The notes below the pieces were generated by a model that did no database searches, was not told where the DNA came from, and saw only the letters and a program-made list of their open reading frames with translations. From Bacillota bacterium (GTDB lineage Bacteria; Bacillota; Dethiobacteria; DTU022), in contig JAAZPQ010000145.1 of the NCBI GenBank assembly GCA_012797175.1, positions 1 to 40,462 on the forward strand: a stretch of DNA of 40,462 nucleotides, written 5' to 3'. Shown here piece after piece: positions 7,401 to 38,682 of the stretch. How positions within the stretch are numbered: position 1 is the first letter of the stretch; each line of letters begins with the position of its first letter. Both the position numbers and the translations under genes were made by a program.

Positions 7401-10112
7401 TTATATGGTCTGACGGTTGATTAAACCCCGGCGGGCGGCAAGAAGCTGCCGCCAGCGGGCTTCGCTTAAGGGACGGTCAAAACTGCGCAGGTCGGCCAGC
7501 CTAAAACCGTGGCGGGCGGCCCACCGGCGCGTCTGTAAAATCGATTCCAGGTTGACCCCCGTGGAGCCGAGGCTGAAATGCTCGTAGCGGCGCTCCAGCG
7601 CCAGCATCACGGTTTCAGCCATGCAGGCGTAAGCCAGCCCCGGCGGAAAACCAAAGTCCCAGCCCAGGTCAGGACGCCCGGGCAGCTCGACCACCCCGCC
7701 GTCGATAACCAGCACGTCGGGGCGGGTCTGCTCAACATCTGCGCTGACATTGGGCGGCCTTGAAATATCGCAGACCACCGCCCCCGGCTGGAGATCTTGA
7801 GGCCGGATCAGCTTACTGCGGCTGTTAGTGGCGCTAATGACAATCCCGGCTCGCGGGAGCGCCTCTTGCACAGAGGTAGTGATCTGGATCGGCCCTCCAC
7901 GGCGGGCGGCGGAGCGGGCGAAGGTGATAAAATCATCGAGAGGCGCCTCCGGCGGGGGCAGCTCTTTACAGTCCGCAAGGTAATCACCGATGCTACCGCC
8001 CGGCAGCCGGCAACCAGCCTGCAGCAAACCGGCAAGGTAACGGTAAATCTCTGCGGCAACCCCCAGCATCCGCCGGCTACCGGTGCTTTTATGGTTGCTA
8101 TGCGGATTTCCAACCAGGATCAGCCCGCCCACCGCCTCGGAGAGAAGCAGGGCCATCCCCCTGCCGATCGATCCAGCAGCCCCGATGATCGCCGCAGTGC
8201 TGTACTGCGGCAAGACCTTAATCTTATCACAGGCCGCCTGGACCGCCTCCACCGCCGAGACGACGGTATAGCTATTGCCGGTCGTCAGCGGAACTCCCTC
8301 CTCTTTCAGGTAGAGCCCGCCCCCGGAGGCTACGGCGGTGTAGGCGCCCAGGCCGACAACGCCGGCGCCACCTTCCCGGGCCAGGTTCAGCGCCTGCCGC
8401 AGCTCCTGCTGCGCCTGCGCCCGGGACATTTGCACCAGCTCTCCGGCCGTGCGCGGCACGACGATAAATTCACCGCAAGCGCTCCGGCCATCCTTTGATC
8501 TTATCCTCACCCGGGAGATCACAAAAGGCTGCACCAGGCTGCTCCACTTTTGGGCCAGGATAGCAAGCTCGTCTTCGCTGAATAGTAACAGGCTTTGATC
8601 AAATTGAGGGTAACTCTGCAGATCAAGAGGGTGAACCAGAAAAGCAAAACGGCCCACGTCGCTTGTAGTAGCCGCAGCGCCCACGGCAGCGGCCCCGTTA
8701 TCCGCCCTCTTTAAAAGAGCCGTTTCTGCCGTTCTTGGCGAGCCGGCAGACGGTGCCGGCTCCGGGACTACCGTTTTCTCCATTTCGTCCCCGCGGGGAA
8801 ACTCTTTGGAAACTAAAAATGAAAAGAATTTCGCCGCGTTTGCTTCGTTCAACACGGCCAGCATATCGGCAATGCCCACCAGGATACGGCGGCACTGCGC
8901 AGCGGTAATCGTAAGCGGCGGCTCGATGCGGATAACGCTGCCGCCGTTTAGCGTAGGCGCCACGCGGATCTTCTCCCGGTTCAACAGGTAGGCGGAGACC
9001 GCCGAGGCGAGAAGCTCCTGTTCGGCGGTAACCCCGAGCAGGCTGCCGGCAAAATAGCCCCTATCGACACCGAGCTCCAGGCCGAGCATTAACCCTCTCC
9101 CGCGCACGGCACTAATGATCTGCGGGTATTCCCTGTGCAGGGACTCCAGCCCCTCCTTCAAGAGGGCCCCCTGCTCCCGGGCAGCATGCAGCAGCGCGCC
9201 GCCGTTTGAGGTAAGCTGCTCCAGCACCCGCAGGCCTACCCGGCAGGCGAGGGAATTTCCGGCAAAGGTTGATGAATGCTTCAGGGCAAAATCGGCGTTG
9301 TAAGCGGCGACAGTGCTGAGGCAGGCGCCGATAGGCAACAGGCCGCCTCCTAAGGCCTTGGCCAGCAGCAGCAGATCGGGGGTGACCCCTTCTTCTTCGC
9401 AAGCAAAAAGGTGTCCCGTCCGCCCCAGGCCGGTCTGGATCTCATCCACCACCAGGAGAACCCCGTAGCGCTCGCAGATCTCTTTAGCCCCGGCAAGGTA
9501 GCCGGGCGGCGGGACGACAATTCCGCCTTCGCCCTGGATCGGCTCGACAATGAAAGCAGCATAAGCCTGGGGTGCTTTAGCAAGTTTATCTTCAAGTGCG
9601 TCGAGAACGCCGTATTCAACAAAGTCAAATCCTTCCGCCGGAGCGCCGAAAGGCGCCTGGTAAGCCGGGTTCCCGGTAGCGGAGAGCGCCCCGAGAGTTT
9701 TACCGTGAAAGCTGTTCTCTGCCGCTAAAATCCCTTGGCGCCCCGTGGCCGAGCGGCAGAGCTTCAGCGCCGCCTCCACCGCTTCGGCGCCGCTGTTAGT
9801 AAAGGTAACGTAGCGCAAACCGGGCGGGGCCAGCTCTACCAACCGCCGCGCCAGCTCCCCGGCGGCATCGAGAAATGAAGGCTGGACAAAATTAGGCTCC
9901 CCGGAGTGGCGAAAATCAGCCACGGCCTCCCAGATACTCGCCGGGTTATGCCCGAAAGGCAGCGCCCCGTAAGCGGCAATGCAATCGAGGTAACCATTGC
10001 CGTGGTCATCGTAAAGGTAGCAGCCCTCTCCCCGGACAAAGGTTTTATCCAGAGCCACGTTATGCAGCAGCTCGCCTAAATAAGGATTAAGATACTCAGT
10101 AAATGGATGCAT
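7401..10112 (-). CDS. Class III PLP aminotransferase fused to an acyl-ACP reductase-like domain (TamH-like architecture)
   Basis: N-half: NSGAEAVEAALK, SFHGKT, EPIQGEGG, DEIQTGLGRTG, LAKALGGG (PLP Lys). C-half: FAFLVHP, VGLGAYT, TTGNSYT, IIGAAGSIG Rossmann, DGGVVE, YACMAETVML (AAR catalytic-Cys motif). Start reassigned from 10151 to ATG 10112 (GGGAGG RBS). Confidence 0.85.
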   Translation of the reverse strand: MHPFTEYLNPYLGELLHNVALDKTFVRGEGCYLYDDHGNGYLDCIAAYGALPFGHNPASIWEAVADFRHSGEPNFVQPSFLDAAGELARRLVELAPPGLRYVTFTNSGAEAVEAALKLCRSATGRQGILAAENSFHGKTLGALSATGNPAYQAPFGAPAEGFDFVEYGVLDALEDKLAKAPQAYAAFIVEPIQGEGGIVVPPPGYLAGAKEICERYGVLLVVDEIQTGLGRTGHLFACEEEGVTPDLLLLAKALGGGLLPIGACLSTVAAYNADFALKHSSTFAGNSLACRVGLRVLEQLTSNGGALLHAAREQGALLKEGLESLHREYPQIISAVRGRGLMLGLELGVDRGYFAGSLLGVTAEQELLASAVSAYLLNREKIRVAPTLNGGSVIRIEPPLTITAAQCRRILVGIADMLAVLNEANAAKFFSFLVSKEFPRGDEMEKTVVPEPAPSAGSPRTAETALLKRADNGAAAVGAAATTSDVGRFAFLVHPLDLQSYPQFDQSLLLFSEDELAILAQKWSSLVQPFVISRVRIRSKDGRSACGEFIVVPRTAGELVQMSRAQAQQELRQALNLAREGGAGVVGLGAYTAVASGGGLYLKEEGVPLTTGNSYTVVSAVEAVQAACDKIKVLPQYSTAAIIGAAGSIGRGMALLLSEAVGGLILVGNPHSNHKSTGSRRMLGVAAEIYRYLAGLLQAGCRLPGGSIGDYLADCKELPPPEAPLDDFITFARSAARRGGPIQITTSVQEALPRAGIVISATNSRSKLIRPQDLQPGAVVCDISRPPNVSADVEQTRPDVLVIDGGVVELPGRPDLGWDFGFPPGLAYACMAETVMLALERRYEHFSLGSTGVNLESILQTRRWAARHGFRLADLRSFDRPLSEARWRQLLAARRGLINRQTI

Positions 10113-10162
10113 AGTTTTCCTCCCAGCGCCTGTGCACATTTTTGTGCGCATGTTCTTTCTCC

Positions 10163-13079: not shown

Positions 13080-15452
13080 TTAATCCTGCCGCTCTTTTTT
13101 CAGATCTAGCCCCCGGAGAAGGTTTTTCTGCATAATCAAGATCAGCGCCGGAGGGACTACATAGAGAAGCAGCGTTGCCGCAGCAACTACCCCGGAATCG
13201 TTTGTCAGCAGGGCGGCGGCGGCACCGGCCAGGGCGGCTCTTACGCCGGTAACCAGGTAAGGCTGCTCCTCCCGCAGCCGCTTCCAGAGGCCGACCGGGT
13301 AAAACGAAAGAACTGCGCAGAGCCCGACCAGGGTGACAAAAGCCCGGCTCCAGATAGAATAGCGTACCAGCCTTAGATTCATCCTCATTTTACGCAAAAC
13401 CGTCTCCCAGAAACCAGCCGGACCGCGTAAGCGGACCATCTCTCCAAAGAGTCCGACATGAGAGGGCAGCAGCCGGGGATGATAGATATTCAACAACCAG
13501 AGCAGCCCTAAGGTGAAGAACAGAAAGAGAGCCACGCTGAACGCTGCCCTCTTCTTACACCCGCTAACCGGCCCGGTGAGCCCGGATAAACCGGCCCACG
13601 ATGCTCCGAAAGCTACCGCCGCCGTCAGGCTTCCGCCAAGGTTGGCTCCAAAATTCGGCGCAGCCAGAACAAATATGATGATACCATAAAAAAGTAAGAT
13701 CGCCCCGCCCAGCAAGAAGGATACCCTTTTTGATCGCAGCCCTCTCTCCGGCAAAGAAGACGGCCCGGTGGCAAAGGCGGCCAGAGAACGCGTCCCCAGT
13801 AAAGCCGACCCGATCAGCACCCCCATGTATTCATTACCAATCCCGTAGTAGCGCGCCCCGCCAACGGTGTCGTAACTGAACAAAGAGAGCTGCTGCAGAG
13901 GGGCCCCGGCCAAGGTATCAACAAGCAGGGCCAGGGCAATAGAGCAGCCGAGCAGGGCCCAGTACAGAAGCTGTTCTCTGTTTGCCAGAGGATGCAGCAG
14001 CACCGCAGGTAGCAGGGCCGCCCCGCCAAGAAGCAGCCCGCTGTGCAGTAGCGAAGGTAGCGGAAAGCGAACCGGACCGGGGAGCAGCAGCAGCACCAGG
14101 GGAATAAGAAGCAGCAGCTCGATCAGCCAGGAGGCCGGTCGCAGGGCTGAACGATTTTTTAGAAGTAGCCCCACCAAGGCGGCCAAAAGTACCACTACCA
14201 GGGCGGCAATATAGCCTTTCAGCAGTGCGGGACGTTGGTCGAAGACCAGTGCGGTCCGGTTATTGAAAAGCTCTAAAAAGGTCAGCGGTTTTTTTTCCGG
14301 GATGATCCTGAAGGAGGCGACCGAGTAAAAAGCAGCCGCACTGTTTCTACTATCAAGTAAAGAGATGATTAGCGAAGCGAGGTCGGTATTCTGGACCAGC
14401 CCCGGGCGGCGGGTAGAGGCGCTGCCGAGCAGCCCGGGCCCGGGGCCGCCGGCGGTAACCAGAAGTAAAGGAGTAAGCTGATCTCCGCCGGTAGGACGGT
14501 TCAACGGCAGAGAGGGTGCCGTCACGAGCAGCAAGCTGTTCTGATCAAGCAGTGGTAATAGTTTCCCGATCAGTAGATCTAGATGTTCCATGGTCAGCTT
14601 GAAAAGCGCTTCCCCTCTTGCCGGGTTCAGCTGCGGCCAGTAATCATCGAGGCGGGTGCTGTCCCCGAATTCGACCAGGTGCAGGCTGGCCGCTTCGATA
14701 TTTGCAGCTACGGTGCCAGCGATCTTATCAATATCTGTCCGCACCCCATAAGGGAAGAGAGGAGCATTTTGCAGCAGATCGGCCCCTACCGCCCCGGCGG
14801 GGACTTCTCCGCCGGAATCCATGGCTATGAGCACTGCGCTGCGGTTTGGTGTAGCCGCGTCGGCGTTACCCCAAACTGCTGCGGTTAAACCTTTCTCTTT
14901 CAGCATCTCCCCTAATAACCCTACTGTAACCGGGTAGGAGAGGGTGCTGTTTTTCTTTTGCAGTGCGGCGGCCTGGAGATGAAAAAGCGCCCCGGCAGGG
15001 TCATTTCCGGTGCAGCGCTTAAAAACTACTTCAGCCTTTTCTCCTTCGATCAGCTCCCCCCTGCCAAAAGCGCTTCTCCCTTCCGGGCCAGCTACCGCCC
15101 GGGCGGCGGTGCCGAGGCTCAGATAGCCGCTCTCGCTACCCGCCTTTCCGCTGCGCACGTTCATCAGGGCCACCGCCTCCTGCTCGAGAAGTTGAGAGAG
15201 GTTCGGCCCCGCCCCGCACAGCAGATCGCTATAAGTAAGCCGGTCCGCCAGCAGCAGAATAACCCGTCTCTCTTCTTCTCCGTTTTCGGCAATGGCAAAA
15301 GGGCGCCACGGCTCCGCCTGATCGCGAATCCACTGTGCGACCATGAAAAGAACTAAGGAGAGCACCACCGCCGCCGCAACCAGGGCGGTTAAAAGCTCTC
15401 TGTTCAGGCGCAGCCCCTTGGAGCCCGGTCCCGGCCTCTCTTTTTGAATCAC
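13080..15452 (-). CDS. Large polytopic membrane protein with an extracytoplasmic alkaline-phosphatase-like domain
   Basis: N-terminal TM segment, soluble domain (LLLADRL, SGYLSLG, STRRPGLVQNTDLA), about 10 C-terminal TM segments containing GGARYYGIGNEYMG and LLTNDSGVVAA; likely GTG start at 15452 overlapping the GT4 stop (ORF track start 15500). Confidence 0.7.
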   Translation of the reverse strand: MIQKERPGPGSKGLRLNRELLTALVAAAVVLSLVLFMVAQWIRDQAEPWRPFAIAENGEEERRVILLLADRLTYSDLLCGAGPNLSQLLEQEAVALMNVRSGKAGSESGYLSLGTAARAVAGPEGRSAFGRGELIEGEKAEVVFKRCTGNDPAGALFHLQAAALQKKNSTLSYPVTVGLLGEMLKEKGLTAAVWGNADAATPNRSAVLIAMDSGGEVPAGAVGADLLQNAPLFPYGVRTDIDKIAGTVAANIEAASLHLVEFGDSTRLDDYWPQLNPARGEALFKLTMEHLDLLIGKLLPLLDQNSLLLVTAPSLPLNRPTGGDQLTPLLLVTAGGPGPGLLGSASTRRPGLVQNTDLASLIISLLDSRNSAAAFYSVASFRIIPEKKPLTFLELFNNRTALVFDQRPALLKGYIAALVVVLLAALVGLLLKNRSALRPASWLIELLLLIPLVLLLLPGPVRFPLPSLLHSGLLLGGAALLPAVLLHPLANREQLLYWALLGCSIALALLVDTLAGAPLQQLSLFSYDTVGGARYYGIGNEYMGVLIGSALLGTRSLAAFATGPSSLPERGLRSKRVSFLLGGAILLFYGIIIFVLAAPNFGANLGGSLTAAVAFGASWAGLSGLTGPVSGCKKRAAFSVALFLFFTLGLLWLLNIYHPRLLPSHVGLFGEMVRLRGPAGFWETVLRKMRMNLRLVRYSIWSRAFVTLVGLCAVLSFYPVGLWKRLREEQPYLVTGVRAALAGAAAALLTNDSGVVAAATLLLYVVPPALILIMQKNLLRGLDLKKERQD

Positions 15453-16645
15453 CGCTTTTCTTTTGCTCCCGAAGAAGTAGCCAGTTCTGAAACCCGGCAC
15501 CGCGAACCGGCAAGCAGCTGCTCGTAAAGGGATGCTGTCCGGGAAAGCATCCGCTCAAGGGTAAATTGAGCCTTGACCCGTTCGCGGCAGGCCCGCCCCA
15601 AGCGGCGGGCCTGCTCCGGATCGCGGGCCAGGGAGGCGATAGCCCGGGCCAAGGCGGCAACGTCGGCTGGTGGAACGAGAAGACCGTGCACGCCGTCAGT
15701 GATCACCTCAGGAATACCGCCGACTCGCGACGCCACCACAGCGCATCCTGAGGCCGCCGCCTCCAGAACGGTAAGCGAAAACCCTTCGGTCAACGAAGGA
15801 AGGACAAAGATATCGATACCGGCCAACCGGCGCGGCAGGTCGGTGCAGTAACCGGAAAATGAAAGTCGGCGGCCCAATCCCAGCTGCCGGGCTAGCTTCT
15901 CCAAGGCGGGACGGCCGGGACCGTCACCGATAATCAGAAAGCGCATCTGCGGAAAAAGTGGCGCCAGAACAGCAGCGGCCTTCACAAAATAGGAGAGCCC
16001 TTTTTGGGGAGCAAAGCGGGCCGCCGTGCCGACAAGTAGTGCATCTTTGCTCTGGCTGCGGGAAAACCTCTCCGCGGCAGCAGTTTCAAACGGTGCCGGA
16101 TCAATGCCGTTATGGATCACGCTGATCTGCTCCTGGAGAATACCCTGGGCGGCAAGTTCATCGGCCAGGGTGTTGGAGACAGCCACATAGTGAGCCCCCG
16201 GCGCCCCCAACAACCTGCCGGCGGCCGGTAGGTATGGAGAGGCCCGGTGGGCCGGGTAATTATGCACTGTGATCAGCACAGGGACCCGGGCCAGGCGTGC
16301 CGCGGGCAATCCGGTCAACGCCGCTTTGAACCCGTGGATATGCAGCAGGTCCGGACGAAGCGTGCGCAATAACCCGTAGAGCTGCCGGAAGGTGAACAGA
16401 TCGCCTACCGGGCTAACCCCCCCGGAGAGAGGCAGGTTGAAGGAAGAGACGGCAGGAAGCCCGGCCAAGAAGGCCGGCTCATTTTCCGGCGGCAACCCCA
16501 GATAGAGAGAGTATTCCCGGCTAAAACGGCTCAGCAATTGCCGCAGATGGGCCTGCATGCCCCCGGAAGCAGGCCGGATTAGGTAAAAGATACCACTTTT
16601 TGCCGCGCAGCCATCCCCTTCGCCCCTCTTCACCTGCAACCGCAC
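15449..16645 (-). CDS. Glycosyltransferase family 4 (GT-B)
   Basis: HIHGFKA, VIHNGID, FVLPSLTEGFSLTVLEAAASG, VASRVGGIPEVITDGVHGLLVPP. Confidence 0.92.
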   Translation of the reverse strand: MRLQVKRGEGDGCAAKSGIFYLIRPASGGMQAHLRQLLSRFSREYSLYLGLPPENEPAFLAGLPAVSSFNLPLSGGVSPVGDLFTFRQLYGLLRTLRPDLLHIHGFKAALTGLPAARLARVPVLITVHNYPAHRASPYLPAAGRLLGAPGAHYVAVSNTLADELAAQGILQEQISVIHNGIDPAPFETAAAERFSRSQSKDALLVGTAARFAPQKGLSYFVKAAAVLAPLFPQMRFLIIGDGPGRPALEKLARQLGLGRRLSFSGYCTDLPRRLAGIDIFVLPSLTEGFSLTVLEAAASGCAVVASRVGGIPEVITDGVHGLLVPPADVAALARAIASLARDPEQARRLGRACRERVKAQFTLERMLSRTASLYEQLLAGSRCRVSELATSSGAKEKR

Positions 16646-27400: not shown

Positions 27401-27568
27401 CCATCTAATTCCATCAAGTTACTAACTTTTTGATTAAGCAGTAAGGGTGCCCCCATCTAAATTTCGATGACTAATAAGACATTTTTATTTTTTATGCAGG
27501 AATTATATCACAATTCGCGAATGTTTCTTGAGTATCTCCTTTTGTTAGATTAACCTTAAAGAAGGAAG

Positions 27569-28354
27569 GTGAAGAAAGTGAATAAAGATCAAGCCATGGT
27601 GCTGGCACGTTTGCATCTGGGGGCAATCCTTCCCCTTCTTGAGGATATAGCAGCCTACGATGACCCTACTCGCAAAGCAATCGCCAATTGGGATTTTCCC
27701 CTCCAGTTCCGCCTTGCCGGTGGTGAACCGGCAACTACCCTGGTATTTGAAAAGGGATCTGTCACGGCACACCGCGGTAAATTTAAGGGCTACCCCCCCG
27801 CCCTGACTTTTAAAGACGCCTCCTTCCTAAACGAAGTTTTCCAGGGCAAGACAGAAAAAAACCCCACACCGAACCTGCCGGGCATCTTCAAAGCCAAGCA
27901 ACTGCTGCAAGTTGACGAAGTCTTGGGACGACTTGAATACTATTTAAAACCGGAACCAGAGCTACTGGCCAACCCCGATACATTTGCTTTCTGTGTCCGG
28001 ATAACCCTTTATGCTACTGCTTTCGGGATAAAAGAAGTCGGAGAGCATGACCTTGAAGTGCGCCCTATTGCCCTGGATCTGCCTGACGGTACCGTCGAGA
28101 TGCGGGTGGCGGATGGCCCCGCAGCCCATCTTATAGTTAAAAAAGGCAATTTCGAACCCTGGCGCGGACCGGCCCAAAAACCTAATGCCATTCTTGAGTT
28201 CAACAATCTGCAGACAGCCTGGGATACCTTCCAGGGTAATCTTGATACCTTTGCCGCTATCGGCAACGGTAAAATAAAGCTGCGTGGGTTTATCCCCCTT
28301 ATCGAAGGGATCAACCCGCTTATGGACCGATTGGCCTATTACCTCTCCGATTAG
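27569..28354 (+). CDS. Tandem SCP2-like (lipid-binding fold) protein A
   Basis: Two repeats of the SCP2 pattern (QFRLAGGEP.TTLVFEKG...; VEMRVADGPAAHL.VKKG...); C-terminal G.LDTFAAIGNGKIKLRG. Confidence 0.65.
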   Translation: MKKVNKDQAMVLARLHLGAILPLLEDIAAYDDPTRKAIANWDFPLQFRLAGGEPATTLVFEKGSVTAHRGKFKGYPPALTFKDASFLNEVFQGKTEKNPTPNLPGIFKAKQLLQVDEVLGRLEYYLKPEPELLANPDTFAFCVRITLYATAFGIKEVGEHDLEVRPIALDLPDGTVEMRVADGPAAHLIVKKGNFEPWRGPAQKPNAILEFNNLQTAWDTFQGNLDTFAAIGNGKIKLRGFIPLIEGINPLMDRLAYYLSD

Positions 28355-28382
28355 AAAATAGAATTGGAGGAGGAGCAATACG

Positions 28383-29633
28383 ATGAGCAAAGTTACCGAG
28401 AAACTCTACAGTTTTGATAAATCAATGGCGCTTTTTGCCCGGGCCGCCGAGGTCATCCCCGGAGGAATTTACGGGCACTTTTCACCGACACTAACTGTTC
28501 CCGGTTCATTCCCCTACTATACAGCAGAAGCTAACGGCTGCCGTTACACCGACGTGGACGGCAACGAGTTTATTGACTATATCTGCGGTTACGGACCGAT
28601 GGTCATCGGCTACCGGAACAAAGCGATCGACGAAGCCGCTGCGGCTCAGCAGGCCCTGGCTGACTGCACCAACCACCCCGGCGAGGTGATGGTGAAGCTG
28701 GCCGAGCGCCTGATAGAGCTGATCCCCACTGCCGACTGGGCTTTTTTTGGCAAAAACGGCGGCGATATGACCACCTATGCCACCCTGGTAGCGCGGGCTT
28801 ATACCAACCGTAAAAAGATCATCATGGTGCGCGGCCATTACCACGGCGTGGCTCCCTGGTGCACAGGGCTTGGTTTCGGGGGGATCACCCCTGAAGATCA
28901 TATACACATTCTCCAGGTCAACTGGAACGATCTGGACGGGTTTGAGAAGCTGGTTCGGCAATACCGGGGCGAGATCGCCGGCTTTATCGCTCAACCGTAC
29001 CACCATATCAATTTTGGAGACCAGGTCATGCCGGCTCCCGGTTACTGGGAAGGGATTGAGCGAATCTGCCGCGAAGAAGGCATTGTCCTCATTCTAGACG
29101 ATGTCCGTGCCGGTTTTCGCCTCAGCATGAAGGGATCCGGCGATTACTTCGGCTTCAAGCCCGACCTGAGCTGTTATTGCAAAGCGATAGCCAACGGCTA
29201 CCCGATCTCAGCCTGCGTCGGACGCAAGGAGCTGATGAATGCCGCTTCGAAGGTCTTCTTTACCGGCTCCTTCTGGACCGCCCAGGTGGCAATGGCCGCC
29301 TCTCTGGCCACCTTGCAAGAGCTGGAAAAAACCAACGCTATTGAGAAAATGAAAGAAAGCGGAACCTTGCTTATGGATGGGCTTAAAGAGCTGGGCAACC
29401 GCTACGGCCTCGAGGTGACCACATCCGGTCCGCCGGCGATCCCGTTTATGCGTTTTACCGAAGATCATGATTTTTACTGGCAACAGGTCTTCTGCTCTGA
29501 AGTAACCAGGCGGGGTTCTTTCTTCCACCCCCATCACAACTGGTTTATCTCGGCGGCTCATGAAAAGGAGGATATCGAGGAGACTCTTAATCATGCTGAA
29601 GCGGCCATAAAGGTACTGAAAAAGAAGATTTAG
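28383..29633 (+). CDS. Class III PLP aminotransferase, GSA-aminomutase-like but not HemL
   Basis: DVDGNEFIDY, GHYHG, LILDDVRAGFR, CKAIANGYPI; IPGGIYGHFSP replaces the HemL GGVNSPVRAF motif. Confidence 0.85.
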   Translation: MSKVTEKLYSFDKSMALFARAAEVIPGGIYGHFSPTLTVPGSFPYYTAEANGCRYTDVDGNEFIDYICGYGPMVIGYRNKAIDEAAAAQQALADCTNHPGEVMVKLAERLIELIPTADWAFFGKNGGDMTTYATLVARAYTNRKKIIMVRGHYHGVAPWCTGLGFGGITPEDHIHILQVNWNDLDGFEKLVRQYRGEIAGFIAQPYHHINFGDQVMPAPGYWEGIERICREEGIVLILDDVRAGFRLSMKGSGDYFGFKPDLSCYCKAIANGYPISACVGRKELMNAASKVFFTGSFWTAQVAMAASLATLQELEKTNAIEKMKESGTLLMDGLKELGNRYGLEVTTSGPPAIPFMRFTEDHDFYWQQVFCSEVTRRGSFFHPHHNWFISAAHEKEDIEETLNHAEAAIKVLKKKI

Positions 29634-29675
29634 CGCCAGGGATGTTTATAAACTAAGTAAGGAGGTAAAAACCAT

Positions 29676-30518
29676 ATGCCGTTAACCGAACAGGAGATAG
29701 CCTTTTTAAAGGAGAAGGCCTGGTTAATCAGGCGCAACACTGTTAAAACCATGCTGTGGGCCGGCGGCGGCCACGCCGGGGGAGGCCTTAGCCAAACCGA
29801 CATCCTGGTTGCACTCTACTACCACTATTTGAAAATAGATCCCAAAAACCCGGATTGGGAAGACCGCGACCGGGTCATCTTGAGCAAGGGTCATGGCGGG
29901 ATCGGCTTCGCCCCCATTCTAGGGGATCTCGGGTATTTTGACGAAGAGATGCTCAAGGAATTCAACCATACCGGTTCTCCCTTCGGGATGCACCTCGATA
30001 TGCGCCAGGTCCCCGGGGTCGATGCTTCGACCGGTTCTCTCGGGCACGGCCTGCCCATCGCCGTAGGGATGGCCCTGGGGGCGCGCCTGAAGAAGAAATC
30101 CTGGCGGGTCTACTGTATCATCGGCGACGGAGAATGCCACGAAGGCTCGATCTGGGAAGCAGCCATGAGCGCCGCCCATTACAAGGTAGATAACCTTACC
30201 GCATTCATTGACCGCAACAAGCACTGCATTGACGGTCCCACTGAGAACATAATGAGCCTGGAGCCGCTGAAAGAGAAGTGGATTAGCTTCGGCTGGCATG
30301 CTCTCGAGATCGACGGCCATGACTTTGCCGAAATTGGCAACGCCATTGAAGAAGCTTTACAAACCTCCGGTCGCCCGACCGTGATTATCGCCCACACGAT
30401 CAAGGGGAAAGGCGTCGACTACATGGAAGATGACCCGGCCTGGCATTACGGCGGGATCGACTCGGACGGATTAGAAAAAGCCTTAGAATCAATCGACCGG
30501 ATGTACGGTAAGGCGTAG
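29676..30518 (+). CDS. Split transketolase, N-terminal (ThDP-binding) subunit
   Basis: GHAGG, DRVILSKGH, STGSLGHG, GDGECHEGSIWEA...DRN, AHTIKGKGV. Confidence 0.92.
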   Translation: MPLTEQEIAFLKEKAWLIRRNTVKTMLWAGGGHAGGGLSQTDILVALYYHYLKIDPKNPDWEDRDRVILSKGHGGIGFAPILGDLGYFDEEMLKEFNHTGSPFGMHLDMRQVPGVDASTGSLGHGLPIAVGMALGARLKKKSWRVYCIIGDGECHEGSIWEAAMSAAHYKVDNLTAFIDRNKHCIDGPTENIMSLEPLKEKWISFGWHALEIDGHDFAEIGNAIEEALQTSGRPTVIIAHTIKGKGVDYMEDDPAWHYGGIDSDGLEKALESIDRMYGKA

Positions 30519-30550
30519 GCCTACCACACCGCTGAAAGGAGGAGCTTAAC

Positions 30551-31558
30551 TTGAGTACAGGTTTAACCTATCATACTTACGATACAGACCATATGACCCC
30601 GGCAGAAATCTATGGGCATGTCCTTGCCGAGCTCGGTGAGGAGAGAGAAGATATTGTCGGCCTGACCGCCGACCTGGCCAAGTCCACCAAGATCGGCAAG
30701 TTCGGCAACAAATTTCCCGAGCGCTTCTTTAACGTAGGCATCGCCGAGCAGAATCTCTTCGGGATGGCTGCAGGCCTGGCCCTGGCTGGATTTACCCCCT
30801 TTGTCTCTACTTTCGCCGTCTTTGCTTCGCTGCGGGCGGGGGAGCAGGTGCGCACAGACATCTGCTACATGAAGCTCAACTGCAAGATCATCGCCACCCA
30901 CTCGGGGATCTCTTTCGGCCAGGCGGGCTCAACGCACCACTGCAACGAAGACCTGGGAGTAATGCGAACCTTCCCCAATATGACGGTAATCGCCCCCGCC
31001 GACGGCTACGAGACCGCCAACGCGGTGATCGCCAGCCTTGATCGTCCCGGCCCGGTCTATATCCGGATTGGGCGCGGCTTTGAGCAGACCGTTTACGAAA
31101 GCGCAGATTACGGCTTTGAAATTGGCAAGGCGGTGACGATGCATGAAGGATCGGATATCACCGTAATGGCCATCGGACCCTGTGTTTTGCATGCTCTGGA
31201 GGCGGCAAAACGGCTGAAAGAGCAAGATATCTCGGTACGGGTCTTAAACATGCACACAATCAAACCGATTGATAAAGAAGCGGTTTTCGCCGCGGTCAAC
31301 GACACGCGTAAGATCATTACCGTGGAGCCGCATAACATTTACGGCGGCCTGGGGACCGCCGTGGCCGAGACCATCACCGAAGGCGGCAAGTCTTGCGCGC
31401 TCAAGCGCCTGGGGCTACAAGATGAGTTTGCCATTGTCGGCTACACCGATGACCTTTACAGCTACTACAAGCTTGATGATAACGGGATCATGGAGGCCGT
31501 TAGCGATATGCTCGGCCTCGAAGTAGAAGAAGATGAAGACTGGGAGGACGAGATTTAA
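30551..31558 (+). CDS. Split transketolase, C-terminal (pyrimidine-binding) subunit
   Basis: ADLAKST, FFNVGIAEQN, FAVFASLRAGEQVR, GPVYIRIGR, NMHTIKPID; TTG start with AGGAGG RBS. Confidence 0.92.
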   Translation: MSTGLTYHTYDTDHMTPAEIYGHVLAELGEEREDIVGLTADLAKSTKIGKFGNKFPERFFNVGIAEQNLFGMAAGLALAGFTPFVSTFAVFASLRAGEQVRTDICYMKLNCKIIATHSGISFGQAGSTHHCNEDLGVMRTFPNMTVIAPADGYETANAVIASLDRPGPVYIRIGRGFEQTVYESADYGFEIGKAVTMHEGSDITVMAIGPCVLHALEAAKRLKEQDISVRVLNMHTIKPIDKEAVFAAVNDTRKIITVEPHNIYGGLGTAVAETITEGGKSCALKRLGLQDEFAIVGYTDDLYSYYKLDDNGIMEAVSDMLGLEVEEDEDWEDEI

Positions 31559-31577
31559 GAAAGGAGGCCGACTCTGT

Positions 31578-32351
31578 ATGCCCGATCAAGAAAGACTGAC
31601 GGCTATTCTGCTGATGCGAGCGGCTCTCCCGCTGACCAAGACGCTGCTGGAGGAGAAGCCGGAGCTGGCTCGCAAATACGCCGGCTGGAACCGGGTAATC
31701 CAGTTCCAGGTAAAAGACGATCCCGAGCTGGCCTGTCACCTGCAGTTCGTTGATGGAAAGCTGGACTACGTTGTCGGCAGGCACCCTTCGCCGCATATCG
31801 ATTTTGTCTTTAAAACACCGGCTGACTTTGTCGCCCTGATGTCTGGCAAGTTTGCCCTGCCCAAAATCCGGGGAGCCATAAGACATTTCGGAACCCTGGT
31901 TAAATTTCTACCGCTGCTGCTCGGCCTGACCTTGCTTTTACCCTCCAAGTTGCCAAAAGAACCGGAAGAGCGGGCCCTAAAGGTAAAGATGCTGCTTTAT
32001 TTTACGTCGGTAGCGCTCTCTCTACTCAATAAGTACGGCCATGAAGGGATGCAAGAGTTTACCCGGGATATGCCCGACCGGATCTTTCAATGGTCAGTGC
32101 AATCGGGTGAACCGGCAGCCTACTTGCGCATCAAGAAAGGGCGGACCAAGGCCGGTAAAGGCATTTACGGCCGGCGTCGTCCCTTTGCTCATATGATCTT
32201 CTCCTCGATCGATGCTGCTTTTCTGGTGCTTACCGGCCAGATTGACAACAATGAGGCTATGCGGGACGGTCTGCTGGTCGTTGACGGTTCACCGGAGCAT
32301 GCAAAGGATATCTCCACGATCATGAAAAATATCGAATCGATGATCGCCTGA
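31578..32351 (+). CDS. Tandem SCP2-like protein B (distant paralog of 27569..28354)
   Basis: Same two-domain layout (IQFQVKDDP..ACHLQFVDG...; FQWSVQSGEPAAYLRIKKG...GQID...AMRDGLLVVDG); start reassigned from 31533 to ATG 31578 after AAGGAGG. Confidence 0.65.
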   Translation: MPDQERLTAILLMRAALPLTKTLLEEKPELARKYAGWNRVIQFQVKDDPELACHLQFVDGKLDYVVGRHPSPHIDFVFKTPADFVALMSGKFALPKIRGAIRHFGTLVKFLPLLLGLTLLLPSKLPKEPEERALKVKMLLYFTSVALSLLNKYGHEGMQEFTRDMPDRIFQWSVQSGEPAAYLRIKKGRTKAGKGIYGRRRPFAHMIFSSIDAAFLVLTGQIDNNEAMRDGLLVVDGSPEHAKDISTIMKNIESMIA

Positions 32352-32402: not shown

Positions 32403-32446
32403 AAATAGGGGTGGGAAGTTAAAAACAGCTTCCCACTCATCTATTT
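32403..32446 (+). terminator. Long hairpin at the end of the SCP2/transketolase operon
   Basis: AAATAG-GGGTGGGAAGT...GCTTCCCACTC-CTATTT bulged stem between convergent genes. Confidence 0.5.
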
Positions 32447-36153: not shown

Positions 36154-37494
36154 ATGTCCGCCAGTGAAATGAGGCGGGCCAAGCGTCACCTGGAAACCAC
36201 CCGCAAGATGAAAGATCTGCTGCCGCGTTTTTTTATGCGCACATTCGAAAGGCGCTTCAGCAACGAGCCGCTGGCCTGGTGCATGGTCGGGGTGCCGCCC
36301 GAGCTGCTGAAAGCTTTTGACCTGCTCTGGGAATGGCCCGAAAACTTCGGCACTCTCTGCGCCAGCCGCCAGGTCGCTCCCCAATTTATCAAAACAGCCG
36401 AAGGAGACGGCTACTCCCCGGAGCTCTGCACCTATGTCACCAACACCCTGGGCTATTGCAAGCTCTGGACAGAATCAGGAGAGCCGCCCGCAGAATCACC
36501 GATGCCCGGCGGGATGGGAAACCCGACCATGCTTTTAGGCTCGGGTTTTATCTGTGAACCGCGTTACAAGTGGTTCCAGACGGTCGCCACCCGCTTTGTC
36601 GATTGCCCCGTCTATAGCAGCGATCCCTTGGCCCCGCCCTGGGATGTCGATCCGCACGACCCCCGCATCGCCAACCATTACAAGGAGCTGCTTCGTGAAG
36701 ACCTGCACGGGCAGGTCGAGTTTTTAGAGCGCCATACCGGAAGAAAACTAGACCCGGGCCGGCTGCGCGAAATATTGACTCTTTCGCACAAGGCCCTGGC
36801 TTACTGGCGGGATACCCTGGCCCTGCGCCAGGCCATCCCCTGCCCGATGGGCTCTACCGACTACTTCTCGGCGATCATCCCGCAGTTGTACATGGTCGGT
36901 GAAGAGGAGGCGGTTGATTTTTACCGGGAGTTCTACCACGAGGTCAAAGACCGGGTTGACCGGAAGATCGGCATTGTCGAAGAAGAAAAATACCGCCTGA
37001 TCTGGTTCGGGCTGCCGCCCTGGTTTAACCTGGGATTTTTTAATTACCTGGAATCGCTCGGGGCAGTCTTTGCTATTGAATCAACTTACAATGTCGGGGA
37101 CTGGTTTGAGGTTGAGATAAACGATCCGCTAGAGGCCATTGTCGAACGGACCTGGCAGCGCGCGGTTAAAATGCACGATTACGGGGCCGAGGCCATGCCG
37201 GAGCTGTGTAACCCCGCCGTCTTTGGTGGTTTCGTTGGCAGCCGCATGCTCGAAGAGGTCGTCGAGCAGTACCACCTCGATGGAGCGGTGATGCACCTGA
37301 CCCGCTCGTGTCGCGCCGTCTCTTTCGGCGAGGTTCATACCAAAAATCGCCTGGCCGAAATGGGGGTACCTTCATTAATTTTTGAAAGCGACATGGCCGA
37401 TCCCCGCCTCTGGTCTGATGCCCAGATTAAGACAAGGGTCCACGCCTTTATCGAGACCCTGGCCGGTCGCGATCCTGGCGGCAGCCAGGGTTGA
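36154..37494 (+). CDS. 2-hydroxyacyl-CoA dehydratase / class I benzoyl-CoA reductase family subunit (alpha-like)
   Basis: PENFG..CA, AE..GYS.ELCTY, CEPRYKWF, LR..IPCPM, DGAVMH..RSCRA.SFG, P.LIFESDM.DPR. Confidence 0.85.
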   Translation: MSASEMRRAKRHLETTRKMKDLLPRFFMRTFERRFSNEPLAWCMVGVPPELLKAFDLLWEWPENFGTLCASRQVAPQFIKTAEGDGYSPELCTYVTNTLGYCKLWTESGEPPAESPMPGGMGNPTMLLGSGFICEPRYKWFQTVATRFVDCPVYSSDPLAPPWDVDPHDPRIANHYKELLREDLHGQVEFLERHTGRKLDPGRLREILTLSHKALAYWRDTLALRQAIPCPMGSTDYFSAIIPQLYMVGEEEAVDFYREFYHEVKDRVDRKIGIVEEEKYRLIWFGLPPWFNLGFFNYLESLGAVFAIESTYNVGDWFEVEINDPLEAIVERTWQRAVKMHDYGAEAMPELCNPAVFGGFVGSRMLEEVVEQYHLDGAVMHLTRSCRAVSFGEVHTKNRLAEMGVPSLIFESDMADPRLWSDAQIKTRVHAFIETLAGRDPGGSQG

Positions 37495-37548
37495 AATTAA
37501 GCGGTGCCCGTCCCGCAGCCATATTCTACAGTAAGGAGAGATTAAAGA

Positions 37549-38682
37549 ATGCATAACTTGTCTGGACTGGCCCGCGCGGCTGCGATAGCCTCGCAACCGG
37601 AGGCGCGGGTTTCTGAACTGCGACAGGAAAGCGGCCGGCCGATTATCGGCTACCTCTGCTGTTTTGCCCCGCCCGAGATTATTAGCGCAGCCGGAGCAAT
37701 ACCCTACCGGATTACCGGCCGGCCCGGCGAACCGACTGCTGAAGCCGATGCCTACCTGGAGCCATACGGCTGCAGCTACGTCCGCAATGTTTTCACGCAG
37801 GCCCTCAAAGGGCGGCTTGATTTTCTGGACGGCCTGGTCATCTCGCACAGCTGCGACCTGGTCCAGCGTCTTTACGGAATCTGGACCTATTACCACCCCT
37901 TCCCCTATTCGCGTCTTTTCAACGTCCCCCACCAGGTTACCCCCTGGGCGGAGCGCTTTTTTAAACGCGAGCTGGGCTTTTTTAAGGAAAGCCTGGAGCA
38001 GTTTACCGGGCAGGCGGTTACAGCAGAGAAGCTCCGCGAAGAAATCGACCTGGCCAACCGTAACCGCGCCTTAATCCGCGAGCTCTACCAGCTCCGGCTT
38101 AAAAACCCCCCGCTGATCAAAGGTAGCGAGATGCTCAGCCTTCTGCTGGCCGGCGGATGGCTCCCCGCGGAGGAGTTTAACACGCTTCTAAACGAGGCCC
38201 TGGAGGAAGTCGAAGCGAGGTCTCCGGAAGGGACGCCGCGCCCCCGGATCTTGGTCTGGGGAAGCCTGCTCGACAATATCGCCTTTTACCGGATGATCGA
38301 AGAGGCCGGCGGCGAGGTTGCCGCCGACGACACCTGCATCGGCTTCCGGCTTTTTGAAAAGGATATCCCCGCGACAGGCGATCCCGATGAAGGGCTGAAG
38401 GAACATTACTTTGTCAACTTCCAGTGCCCGCGCACCGACCGCGGCCCGGGCACCGGGCGTTTTGATTACCTGCTGGAGCGGGCCCGCGAATATAACGTTG
38501 ACGGAGTGATTAGCTATATTATCTCTTTCTGTGACCCCCATAAGTTTGATTACCCGGACTTAAGGGATTACCTGAAGGAAGCTGATTTTCCGATGCTGCT
38601 GATCGATGACAACTACAGTTTTACTCCTGCCGGAACAATTCAGACCAGGCTGCAGGCCTTCATCGAGCTTCTGGCCCGTTAA
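37549..38682 (+). CDS. 2-hydroxyacyl-CoA dehydratase / benzoyl-CoA reductase family subunit (beta-like)
   Basis: GYLCCFAPPEII.AAG, CSYVR, SHSCD, DDTCIG, DGVI.....FCDPH.FDYP, TRLQAF.E. Confidence 0.85.
   Translation: MHNLSGLARAAAIASQPEARVSELRQESGRPIIGYLCCFAPPEIISAAGAIPYRITGRPGEPTAEADAYLEPYGCSYVRNVFTQALKGRLDFLDGLVISHSCDLVQRLYGIWTYYHPFPYSRLFNVPHQVTPWAERFFKRELGFFKESLEQFTGQAVTAEKLREEIDLANRNRALIRELYQLRLKNPPLIKGSEMLSLLLAGGWLPAEEFNTLLNEALEEVEARSPEGTPRPRILVWGSLLDNIAFYRMIEEAGGEVAADDTCIGFRLFEKDIPATGDPDEGLKEHYFVNFQCPRTDRGPGTGRFDYLLERAREYNVDGVISYIISFCDPHKFDYPDLRDYLKEADFPMLLIDDNYSFTPAGTIQTRLQAFIELLAR

Follow-up and report, generated by a model that had tools for sequence, protein, structure and literature searches.

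The 40,462-nucleotide stretch analysed here (contig JAAZPQ010000145.1 of the Bacillota assembly GCA_012797175.1; hereafter the window) carries, between positions 27569 and 32351 of its + strand, an operon of five genes that brings together an aminotransferase (AT), a transketolase (TK) split into two subunits (TKn and TKc) and two proteins of the SCP2 type (SCP2a and SCP2b). From the sequences and predicted structures of these proteins we propose that the most likely task of the operon is to convert sphingosine-like amino-diol lipids into fatty aldehydes, or the reverse. As contig C16, the window belongs to a metagenome-assembled genome (MAG) of 1.94 Mb that is 94.7% complete, and the genome-level absences given below rest on that completeness. 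The nearest public relatives, labelled Syntrophomonadaceae or Bacillota, are MAGs from anaerobic digesters. The operon is laid out as follows.

27401–27568, + strand: 5' intergenic region, AT-rich, with an AGGAAGG ribosome-binding site at its end
27569–28354, + strand: SCP2a, tandem double-SCP2 carrier, 261 aa (258 aa from GTG 27578)
28383–29633, + strand: FumI-type class III (omega) aminotransferase AT, 416 aa (PF00202)
29676–30518, + strand: transketolase N-terminal (PP domain) subunit TKn, 280 aa (PF00456)
30551–31558, + strand: transketolase C-terminal (Pyr + C domain) subunit TKc, 335 aa, TTG start (PF02779 + PF02780)
31578–32351, + strand: SCP2b, tandem double-SCP2 carrier, 257 aa (Pfam SCP2)
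32409–32438, + strand: terminator-like hairpin ending the operon, 12-pair stem with 6 GC pairs

Successive genes are separated by 28, 42, 32 and 19 nt, and the hairpin begins 57 nt past the last stop codon and has a weak T-tract. The GTG at 27578 is the more probable start of SCP2a and would give a protein of 258 residues matching database cluster P0001, and SCP2b starts at the ATG at 31578, behind an AGGAGG motif, in an open reading frame (ORF) that itself opens at 31533. An Rfam scan of the 5' region returned no family, no consensus sigma-70 site passed the scan of the same region, and the promoter was not located. An earlier note on this DNA had described five co-oriented ORFs with short gaps (19–42 nt by our count) and a closing hairpin, with no sugar kinase, isomerase, phosphotransferase system (PTS) or ATP-binding cassette (ABC) transporter gene within the operon, and our ORF and family scan bears this description out.

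The order SCP2a-AT-TKn-TKc-SCP2b recurs well outside this genome. With tblastn, and by clustering the ORFs of about 22 loci, we found it repeated in at least 10 other genomes of several genera and families, among them Syntrophomonadaceae, other Bacillota, Dethiobacteria-related MAGs and Candidatus Hakubella thermalkaliphila, which belongs to a different phylum-level lineage. Conservation of this five-gene order is far beyond chance. The flanks vary (murT and prsA here; pntAB, icd and coaE elsewhere; a hemA-hemC-hemD-hemB cluster in Hakubella) while the same five genes stay together, so the cassette is a self-contained unit. It is also an accessory insertion, since murT directly adjoins prsA in two genomes of the same family that have no cassette (G006 and G012); in the same genus, the G001 contig ends at murT and the G002 match to murT lies ~400 bases from a contig end, so that neither speaks for absence. 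Homologues of SCP2a were found in 11 of 61 related genomes, and relatives of SCP2b in 6 of the 401 genomes of an even sample of the phylum. About 15 cassette loci held no kinase, isomerase, phosphatase or sugar transporter, and no N-acyltransferase or head-group gene alongside the cassette. The hosts include subsurface and serpentinite-spring organisms: Candidatus Hakubella comes from a serpentinising spring, and others are deep-subsurface MAGs. An in-frame TAG reported in the SCP2a frame of two genomes (G040 and G042) most likely lies upstream of the start, because the ORF called at locus L021 is intact at 284 aa. The tetrapyrrole cluster of Hakubella (L024:3788–9337) is divergent to the cassette and comprises hemB, cobA-hemD, hemC, hemA and a sirohaem-synthase-like NAD domain, with no hemL inside the cluster itself.

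AT is a class III enzyme (PF00202, Aminotran_3; 145 bits), and many of its homologues are annotated in databases as glutamate-1-semialdehyde 2,1-aminomutase (GSAM, or HemL). It scores far below the cut-offs of the HemL models (240.8 against 398 for NF000818; 234 against 527 for TIGR00713), and its N-terminal motif is the FumI-like PGGIYGHFSP where GSAM has PGGVNSPVR. Its best match in the PDB is 6HBS, the aminopentol aminotransferase FumI, which scores 337.6 bits and aligns over 394 residues with two gaps only and 41% identity; the best GSAM entry reaches 186 bits. By maximum likelihood, FumI groups with all SCP2a-linked aminotransferases in one clade (support 100/99), to the exclusion of GSAM and the other class III enzymes of the same genome. 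AT and FumI have in common the class III pyridoxal-phosphate (PLP) fold, an N-terminal VIPGG(I/M)YGH and a CK/GK-x-(I/F)ANGYPIS lysine motif; the SCP2a-paired aminotransferases are 55–60% identical across phyla and closer to one another than any of them is to FumI. Searches of the genome by tblastn with Hakubella HemA, HemB and HemC gave no match to hemA, hemB or hemC, so the role of HemL is unavailable to AT here. The hemL-less hem cluster near the Hakubella cassette had raised the possibility that AT is HemL, and for this genome we rejected the assignment on the motif, the scores and the absence of hemA, hemB and hemC.

FumI, an enzyme of Sphingopyxis sp. MTA144 (PDB 6HBS/6HBV), converts hydrolysed fumonisin B1 to the 2-ketone, with pyruvate as the preferred acceptor and a Km of 1.1 µM (PMC3136697). 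Hydrolysed fumonisin B1 is 2-amino-3,5,10,14,15-pentol-icosane, a sphinganine-like 2-amino-3-hydroxy long-chain lipid (PMC3136697). FumI acts in aerobic alphaproteobacterial fumonisin catabolism, from a cluster with carboxylesterase and tricarballylate-utilisation genes (fumD, fumE-G; PMC3136697), and the FumI literature that we found reports no transketolase or SCP2 partner, whereas the cassette AT has both. By this placement we regard AT as a FumI-type lipid-amine aminotransferase with putative activity on long-chain 2-amino-3-hydroxy lipids. Its family is large, with 3449 matches at E ≤ 1e-40. Elsewhere in the genome, contig C225 (3080–6758) encodes a TetR regulator, a 492-aa GSAM-like class III aminotransferase and a 414-aa protein, with a 536-aa gene upstream.

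The two transketolase subunits score well over the cut-offs of their families (TKn, PF00456, Transketolase_N, 154 bits; TKc, PF02779 and PF02780). The closest solved structures are 6YAK for TKn and 6YAJ for TKc, both from the split TK of Carboxydothermus hydrogenoformans, which is divided into the same PP and Pyr + C subunits and matches at about 268–271 bits per subunit. We aligned 14 TKn and 12 TKc cassette orthologues with that enzyme, human TKT and the housekeeping TKs of the same genomes. The cassette enzymes keep the GDG...N motif that binds thiamine diphosphate (ThDP) and metal, as well as the histidines for catalysis and for binding the C1-OH of the donor (equivalent to E. coli H26, H66, H100, H261 and H473), in the motifs GGGHAGG, LSKGHG, FGMHLD, GDGE..DRN, AWHYGG and STHH. 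They depart from the canonical pattern at three substrate-binding positions. All cassette TKc proteins have G[QTP]AG[ST]THH for canonical GEDGxxHQ, which replaces E. coli Asp469 (its yeast equivalent, Asp477, binds the 2-hydroxyl of the acceptor) with Ala; TKn has FNH or FNQ for FR(K/Q), replacing Arg91 with Asn; and all TKc proteins have MT[PS][AKT]EIYG for ATRxxxG (TPA or TSK for ATR), so that Arg358 is lost to Ala or Pro. Equivalents of Ser385, His461 and Arg520 are retained. Canonical TKs such as E. coli TktA and human TKT keep Asp469, Arg91 and Arg358 equivalents, and the full-length housekeeping TK of the same genome, on contig C138, is canonical at all these positions.

Judged by these motifs, the cassette TK is a true transketolase-fold ThDP enzyme that lacks the canonical sugar-phosphate site, and its pocket changes would make the site less polar. 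In E. coli TK, Asp469 faces the active site and pairs with Arg91 through a salt bridge, and replacing it makes room for non-natural hydrophobic acceptors; the phosphate of the substrate is held by Ser385 and Arg520 (PMC5073344). The E. coli TK variants engineered at D469, R520 and S385 (PMC5073344) include a change at the very position that is naturally altered in the cassette, D469 being mutated so that hydrophobic aldehydes lacking a hydroxyl are taken. The TK genes are linked to aminotransferase and SCP2 genes, not to pentose-phosphate or sugar-catabolic genes.

SCP2b is recognised by the Pfam SCP2 model (PF02036) at 36.6 bits, above the 21.3 cut-off, whereas SCP2a scores 17.3 and falls below it. 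The two are paralogues with 25% identity over their full length. AlphaFold (AF2) models built from orthologue alignments have the same topology for both proteins (predicted local distance difference test, pLDDT, 93.6 for SCP2a and 90.6 for SCP2b), each model consisting of two consecutive SCP2-type alpha/beta units. Foldseek searches of the PDB with these models matched only structures of SCP2, the SCP2L domain of MFE-2, an alkylsulfatase C-domain and UbiJ, with target-normalised TM-scores of about 0.6–0.67 for the top matches. Structure prediction and Foldseek thus confirm, at the level of the models, that SCP2a is an SCP2 protein despite its sub-threshold Pfam score. The central helix of SCP2b is strongly hydrophobic (FLPLLLGLTLLLP) and is missing from SCP2a; it may be a membrane-docking element. 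Among 1.84 billion representatives (50%-identity level), a profile search picked out 663 members of the SCP2a family at E ≤ 1e-3 and 412 at E ≤ 1e-10, nearly all of them 250–270 aa long, and neither Pfam nor NCBIfam has a model specific for this family; a word-based search had returned 49 proteins, badly underestimating the size of the family.

Single-domain SCP2 proteins occur as well. On contig C224 (1395–4019) of this genome, one of 187 aa adjoins an iron-type alcohol dehydrogenase and a 4Fe-4S protein, and in Hakubella (L024:14975–17573) a 62%-identical homologue lies beside an aldehyde:ferredoxin oxidoreductase (AOR), abutting the cassette. We considered the 187-aa protein as a partner of the cassette and rejected it, because its co-occurrence among the 61 relatives (5 of 11, compared with about 16 of 50) does not exceed background.

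The cassette is assembled from two sub-modules. Compared with the same-genus genome G004, SCP2a and AT are 75% and 83% identical, and TKn, TKc and SCP2b are 47%, 62% and 30% identical; compared with the distant Hakubella, the values are 59% and 69% for SCP2a and AT, and 72.5%, 80% and 73.5% for TKn, TKc and SCP2b. These opposite patterns indicate that SCP2a-AT and TK-SCP2b have separate histories. Two very different versions of TKn-TKc-SCP2b are present within one genus (G003 and G004, at L014 and L015, versus the window), which points to replacement of that half by recombination or transfer within the genus. The SCP2a-AT pair occurs across phyla without a transketolase: in all seven distant AT loci that we inspected, from Verrucomicrobium sp. 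GAS474, a Brocadia-labelled MAG, Lernaella and metagenome contigs, a full-length SCP2a homologue of 253–260 aa (29–46% identity) lies directly 5' of AT, and none of the seven has a transketolase gene. SCP2b, for its part, is always 3' of TKc in cassette loci. Since SCP2a stays by AT in loci without TK, we infer that SCP2a would serve AT and that SCP2b would travel with TK, each putative carrier being paired with its own enzyme.

Two of the TK-free contexts bear on the substrate. On a JGI metagenome contig (3300079576; L054:1–12933), SCP2a-AT lies 3' of a type I polyketide synthase (PKS) and an alpha-oxoamine synthase (AOS) of the BioF/Spt family, with gaps of 5–6 nt; the PKS is fully reducing (the PKS domains AT-DH-ER-KR-ACP were seen). 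On the opposite side are a short-chain dehydrogenase/reductase (SDR), an unannotated 216-aa protein, a GT1 glycosyltransferase and a CDP-alcohol phosphatidyltransferase. Among NCBIfam models this SDR matches 3-ketodihydrosphingosine reductase best, with a score under the cut-off. The pair of Verrucomicrobium sp. GAS474 is found among glycosyltransferases, a ketosynthase (KS), an acyl carrier protein (ACP)-dehydratase and a similar SDR; both SDR calls are weak, as generic SDR models score almost equally. The L054 cluster, which is sphingolipid-like and biosynthetic in appearance, is followed by polysaccharide-export genes, and in it the FumI-type transaminase sits with an amine-installing synthase already present.

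From these observations on the layout and conservation of the operon, on protein folds and families and on substituted residues, we infer a substrate and a direction for the cassette. A lipid substrate is suggested by three properties of the proteins (the nearest characterised relative of AT is FumI, the TK pocket is depolarised and the carriers are tandem SCP2 proteins) and, in an independent context, by the place of SCP2a-AT in the L054 PKS-AOS cluster. In the reading that we tentatively favour, while granting it slightly less than an even chance, the cassette would work degradatively, converting a long-chain 2-amino-1,3-diol via a 2-keto-1,3-diol to a fatty aldehyde and a C2 unit. SCP2a would hold the amino-diol (sphingoid-base-like or a 1-deoxy analogue) and present it to AT, which would move the C2 amino group onto a 2-oxo acid, pyruvate by analogy with FumI, and leave a 1,3-dihydroxy-2-ketone that amounts to a 'lipid ketose'. 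The split TK, its acceptor pocket stripped of residues that bind sugar hydroxyls and phosphate, would then cut the C2-C3 bond by means of ThDP and free the fatty aldehyde to SCP2b, and the C1-C2 glycolaldehyde unit would stay on ThDP for transfer to an aldose acceptor. All of these steps would be reversible in principle. The degradative direction is somewhat more likely in the host, a bacterium of the fatty-acid-oxidising Syntrophomonadaceae. We lean towards catabolism because FumI is catabolic, because N-acyltransferase and head-group genes are lacking in about 15 loci, because the cassette is accessory, patchy and rare (6 of 401 genomes) and because the host family oxidises fatty acids.

Much of this had been anticipated. 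The earlier note had suggested a natural transketolase-transaminase cascade acting on lipophilic substrates held by SCP2 proteins, running either towards or away from a sphingoid-like amino-lipid, and it had thereby supposed that the flanking proteins are SCP2 folds that bind acyl chains, that AT is not a plain GSAM, that TK departs from the standard phospho-sugar type and that the gene set is conserved together. The computational tests all came out in favour of the cascade, with its substrate still a matter of prediction: the tandem units in the AF2 models and the Foldseek matches agree with the SCP2 assignment, lipid binding being proposed by analogy; AT has sub-cut-off HemL scores, no GSAM motif, no hemA, hemB or hemC beside it in the genome and a place in the FumI clade; TK has lost three binding residues that the housekeeping TK keeps; and the same order of genes recurs across lineages. 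The note had also recognised no described pathway with this gene set, and a literature search, partial in coverage, likewise found neither the gene set nor a TK that acts on sphingoid lipids.

Several observations weigh against degradation of a lipid amino-diol. An identity of 41% to FumI leaves the substrate unfixed. Loss of Asp469, Arg91 and Arg358 should weaken the binding of a sugar-phosphate acceptor, which is needed for the second half-reaction of a degradative TK. No regulator, transporter or aldehyde-oxidising enzyme lies in or next to the cassette here, which is unusual for a catabolic operon. For hosts in the subsurface and in serpentinite springs, exogenous sphingolipids should be scarce. 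The SCP2a-AT pair is found elsewhere in biosynthetic-looking clusters. Finally, canonical TK handles 3S ketols, and D-erythro-sphinganine would give a 3R ketol.

The same chemistry could run in the biosynthetic direction, with TK extending a fatty aldehyde by a C2 ketol unit and AT aminating the 1,3-dihydroxy-2-ketone so formed, so that a sphingoid base is made without serine palmitoyltransferase; we consider this rather unlikely, with more to be said for it than for any of the alternatives that follow. By tblastn the genome has no alpha-oxoamine synthase/Spt homologue, and any sphingoid base would therefore need another route. The lack of a regulator, a transporter or an aldehyde oxidiser and the setting of the cassette among housekeeping genes fit synthesis, as do the lipid- and glycolipid-like clusters of Verrucomicrobia and the PKS-AOS cluster in which SCP2a-AT is found, and the presence of the cassette in spring-derived Candidatus Hakubella and deep-subsurface MAGs, which are subsurface autotroph-like organisms. 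The residues lost from TK are exactly those that a degradative TK needs for a sugar-phosphate acceptor, and their loss matters less if hydroxypyruvate is the C2 donor. Against synthesis, the cassette has no linked gene for a ceramide synthase, N-acyltransferase, kinase or head-group transferase in about 15 loci, nor one for a reductase that forms fatty aldehydes; it is an accessory of patchy occurrence whose site is empty in relatives, and the nearest characterised enzyme is degradative.

A more specific, and in our estimate distinctly improbable, form of synthesis is a closed cycle in which AT takes L-serine as the amino donor and yields hydroxypyruvate, the irreversible C2 donor of TK, so that a sphingoid-type base is made. 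The net reaction would be L-serine + fatty aldehyde → long-chain 2-amino-1,3-diol + CO2. Such a cycle would explain why only two enzymes and two carriers travel together through many contexts, and how TK could do without the residues that bind sugar phosphates. Ketols made by canonical TK are 3S, and the configuration of fumonisin is 2S,3S. Should the 3S selectivity of TK and FumI's preference for 2S,3S apply here, the product would be threo (safingol-like), not D-erythro-sphinganine.

It is very unlikely, in our view, that the substrate is instead a small polar amino-polyol or amino-ketose, such as serinol or an amino-sugar alcohol, with the SCP2-like proteins acting as scaffolds or chaperones. 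Polyols are substrates for class III transaminases and for transketolases alike, the phosphate-site equivalents of R520, S385 and H461 are kept, and lipid binding by the SCP2 proteins is itself putative. Yet the changes in the TK pocket lower its polarity, every cassette locus lacks a kinase, isomerase, phosphatase and sugar transporter, the AT clade includes the lipid-amine enzyme FumI, SCP2a-AT is found in a PKS-AOS context, and it would be hard to explain why soluble substrates need two tandem SCP2 proteins of their own, one of which has a hydrophobic central helix. That the operon merely juxtaposes by chance a HemL and a split transketolase of the pentose-phosphate pathway, both doing ordinary housekeeping, is suggested by the GSAM annotation of many AT homologues and by the hemL-less hemA-hemC-hemD-hemB cluster adjoining the Hakubella cassette, and can be put aside as extremely improbable given the sub-cut-off HemL scores and PGGIYGHFSP in place of PGGVNSPVR, the retention of AT in a genome without hemA, hemB and hemC, the separate canonical full-length TK on contig C138 and the strict five-gene linkage across lineages.

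Conversion of lipid amino-diols by TK and AT would follow the same logic as the TK-transaminase cascades engineered for chiral 2-amino-1,3-diols, in which an aldehyde and a C2 ketol donor give a 1,3-dihydroxyketone and then an aminodiol. Those cascades are laboratory constructs that act on short aldehydes, whereas the cassette is a natural operon with predicted lipid carriers. Like the cassette, the apiose (AptAB) and sulfoquinovose (SqwGH) pathways place a split TK in a specialised operon. Operons of the AptAB and SqwGH type serve polar sugars and carry genes for kinases, isomerases and transporters, but none of these partners is found in the operon of the window or in about 15 related loci. 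The routes through serine palmitoyltransferase and 3-ketodihydrosphingosine (KDS) reductase, and through sphingosine-1-phosphate (S1P) lyase, have the same presumed end compounds, a 2-amino-1,3-diol and a fatty aldehyde. They rely on a PLP-dependent Claisen condensation or on retro-aldol cleavage of a phosphorylated base, whereas the cassette would combine ThDP-dependent cleavage or formation of a C2-C3 ketol bond with transamination.

If the proposal is true, the cassette would be the first natural pathway with a transketolase working on a lipid, and the first route to or from sphingoid-type bases that bypasses both serine palmitoyltransferase and S1P lyase. It would fill a gap in the account of how lipids are turned over anaerobically in digesters, guts and the subsurface, and give a function both to the pan-phylum tandem-SCP2 family (663 representative clusters) and to thousands of aminotransferases mislabelled as HemL. 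It would also offer naturally evolved enzymes for the synthesis of chiral amino-diols and for the detoxification of sphinganine-analogue mycotoxins.

In the window, the operon is preceded by an adenine deaminase-like gene, a CBS-domain gene and murT, and followed by prsA, hisG, a zinc-type alcohol dehydrogenase gene (Zn-ADH) and genes for HGD-D subunits. The last are two adjacent HGD-D family genes (36154–38682, + strand) encoding subunits of the 2-hydroxyacyl-CoA dehydratase or benzoyl-CoA-reductase type, and their synteny with hisG is kept in related genomes. On the − strand, positions 7401–10151 encode a 916-aa protein with an N-terminal PF00202 domain (293 bits) followed by ~480 C-terminal residues without a Pfam match. 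Also on the − strand, an 806-aa ORF at 13080–15500, which has no Pfam match at E ≤ 1e-5, adjoins a GT4 glycosyltransferase gene and two M16 peptidase-like genes.

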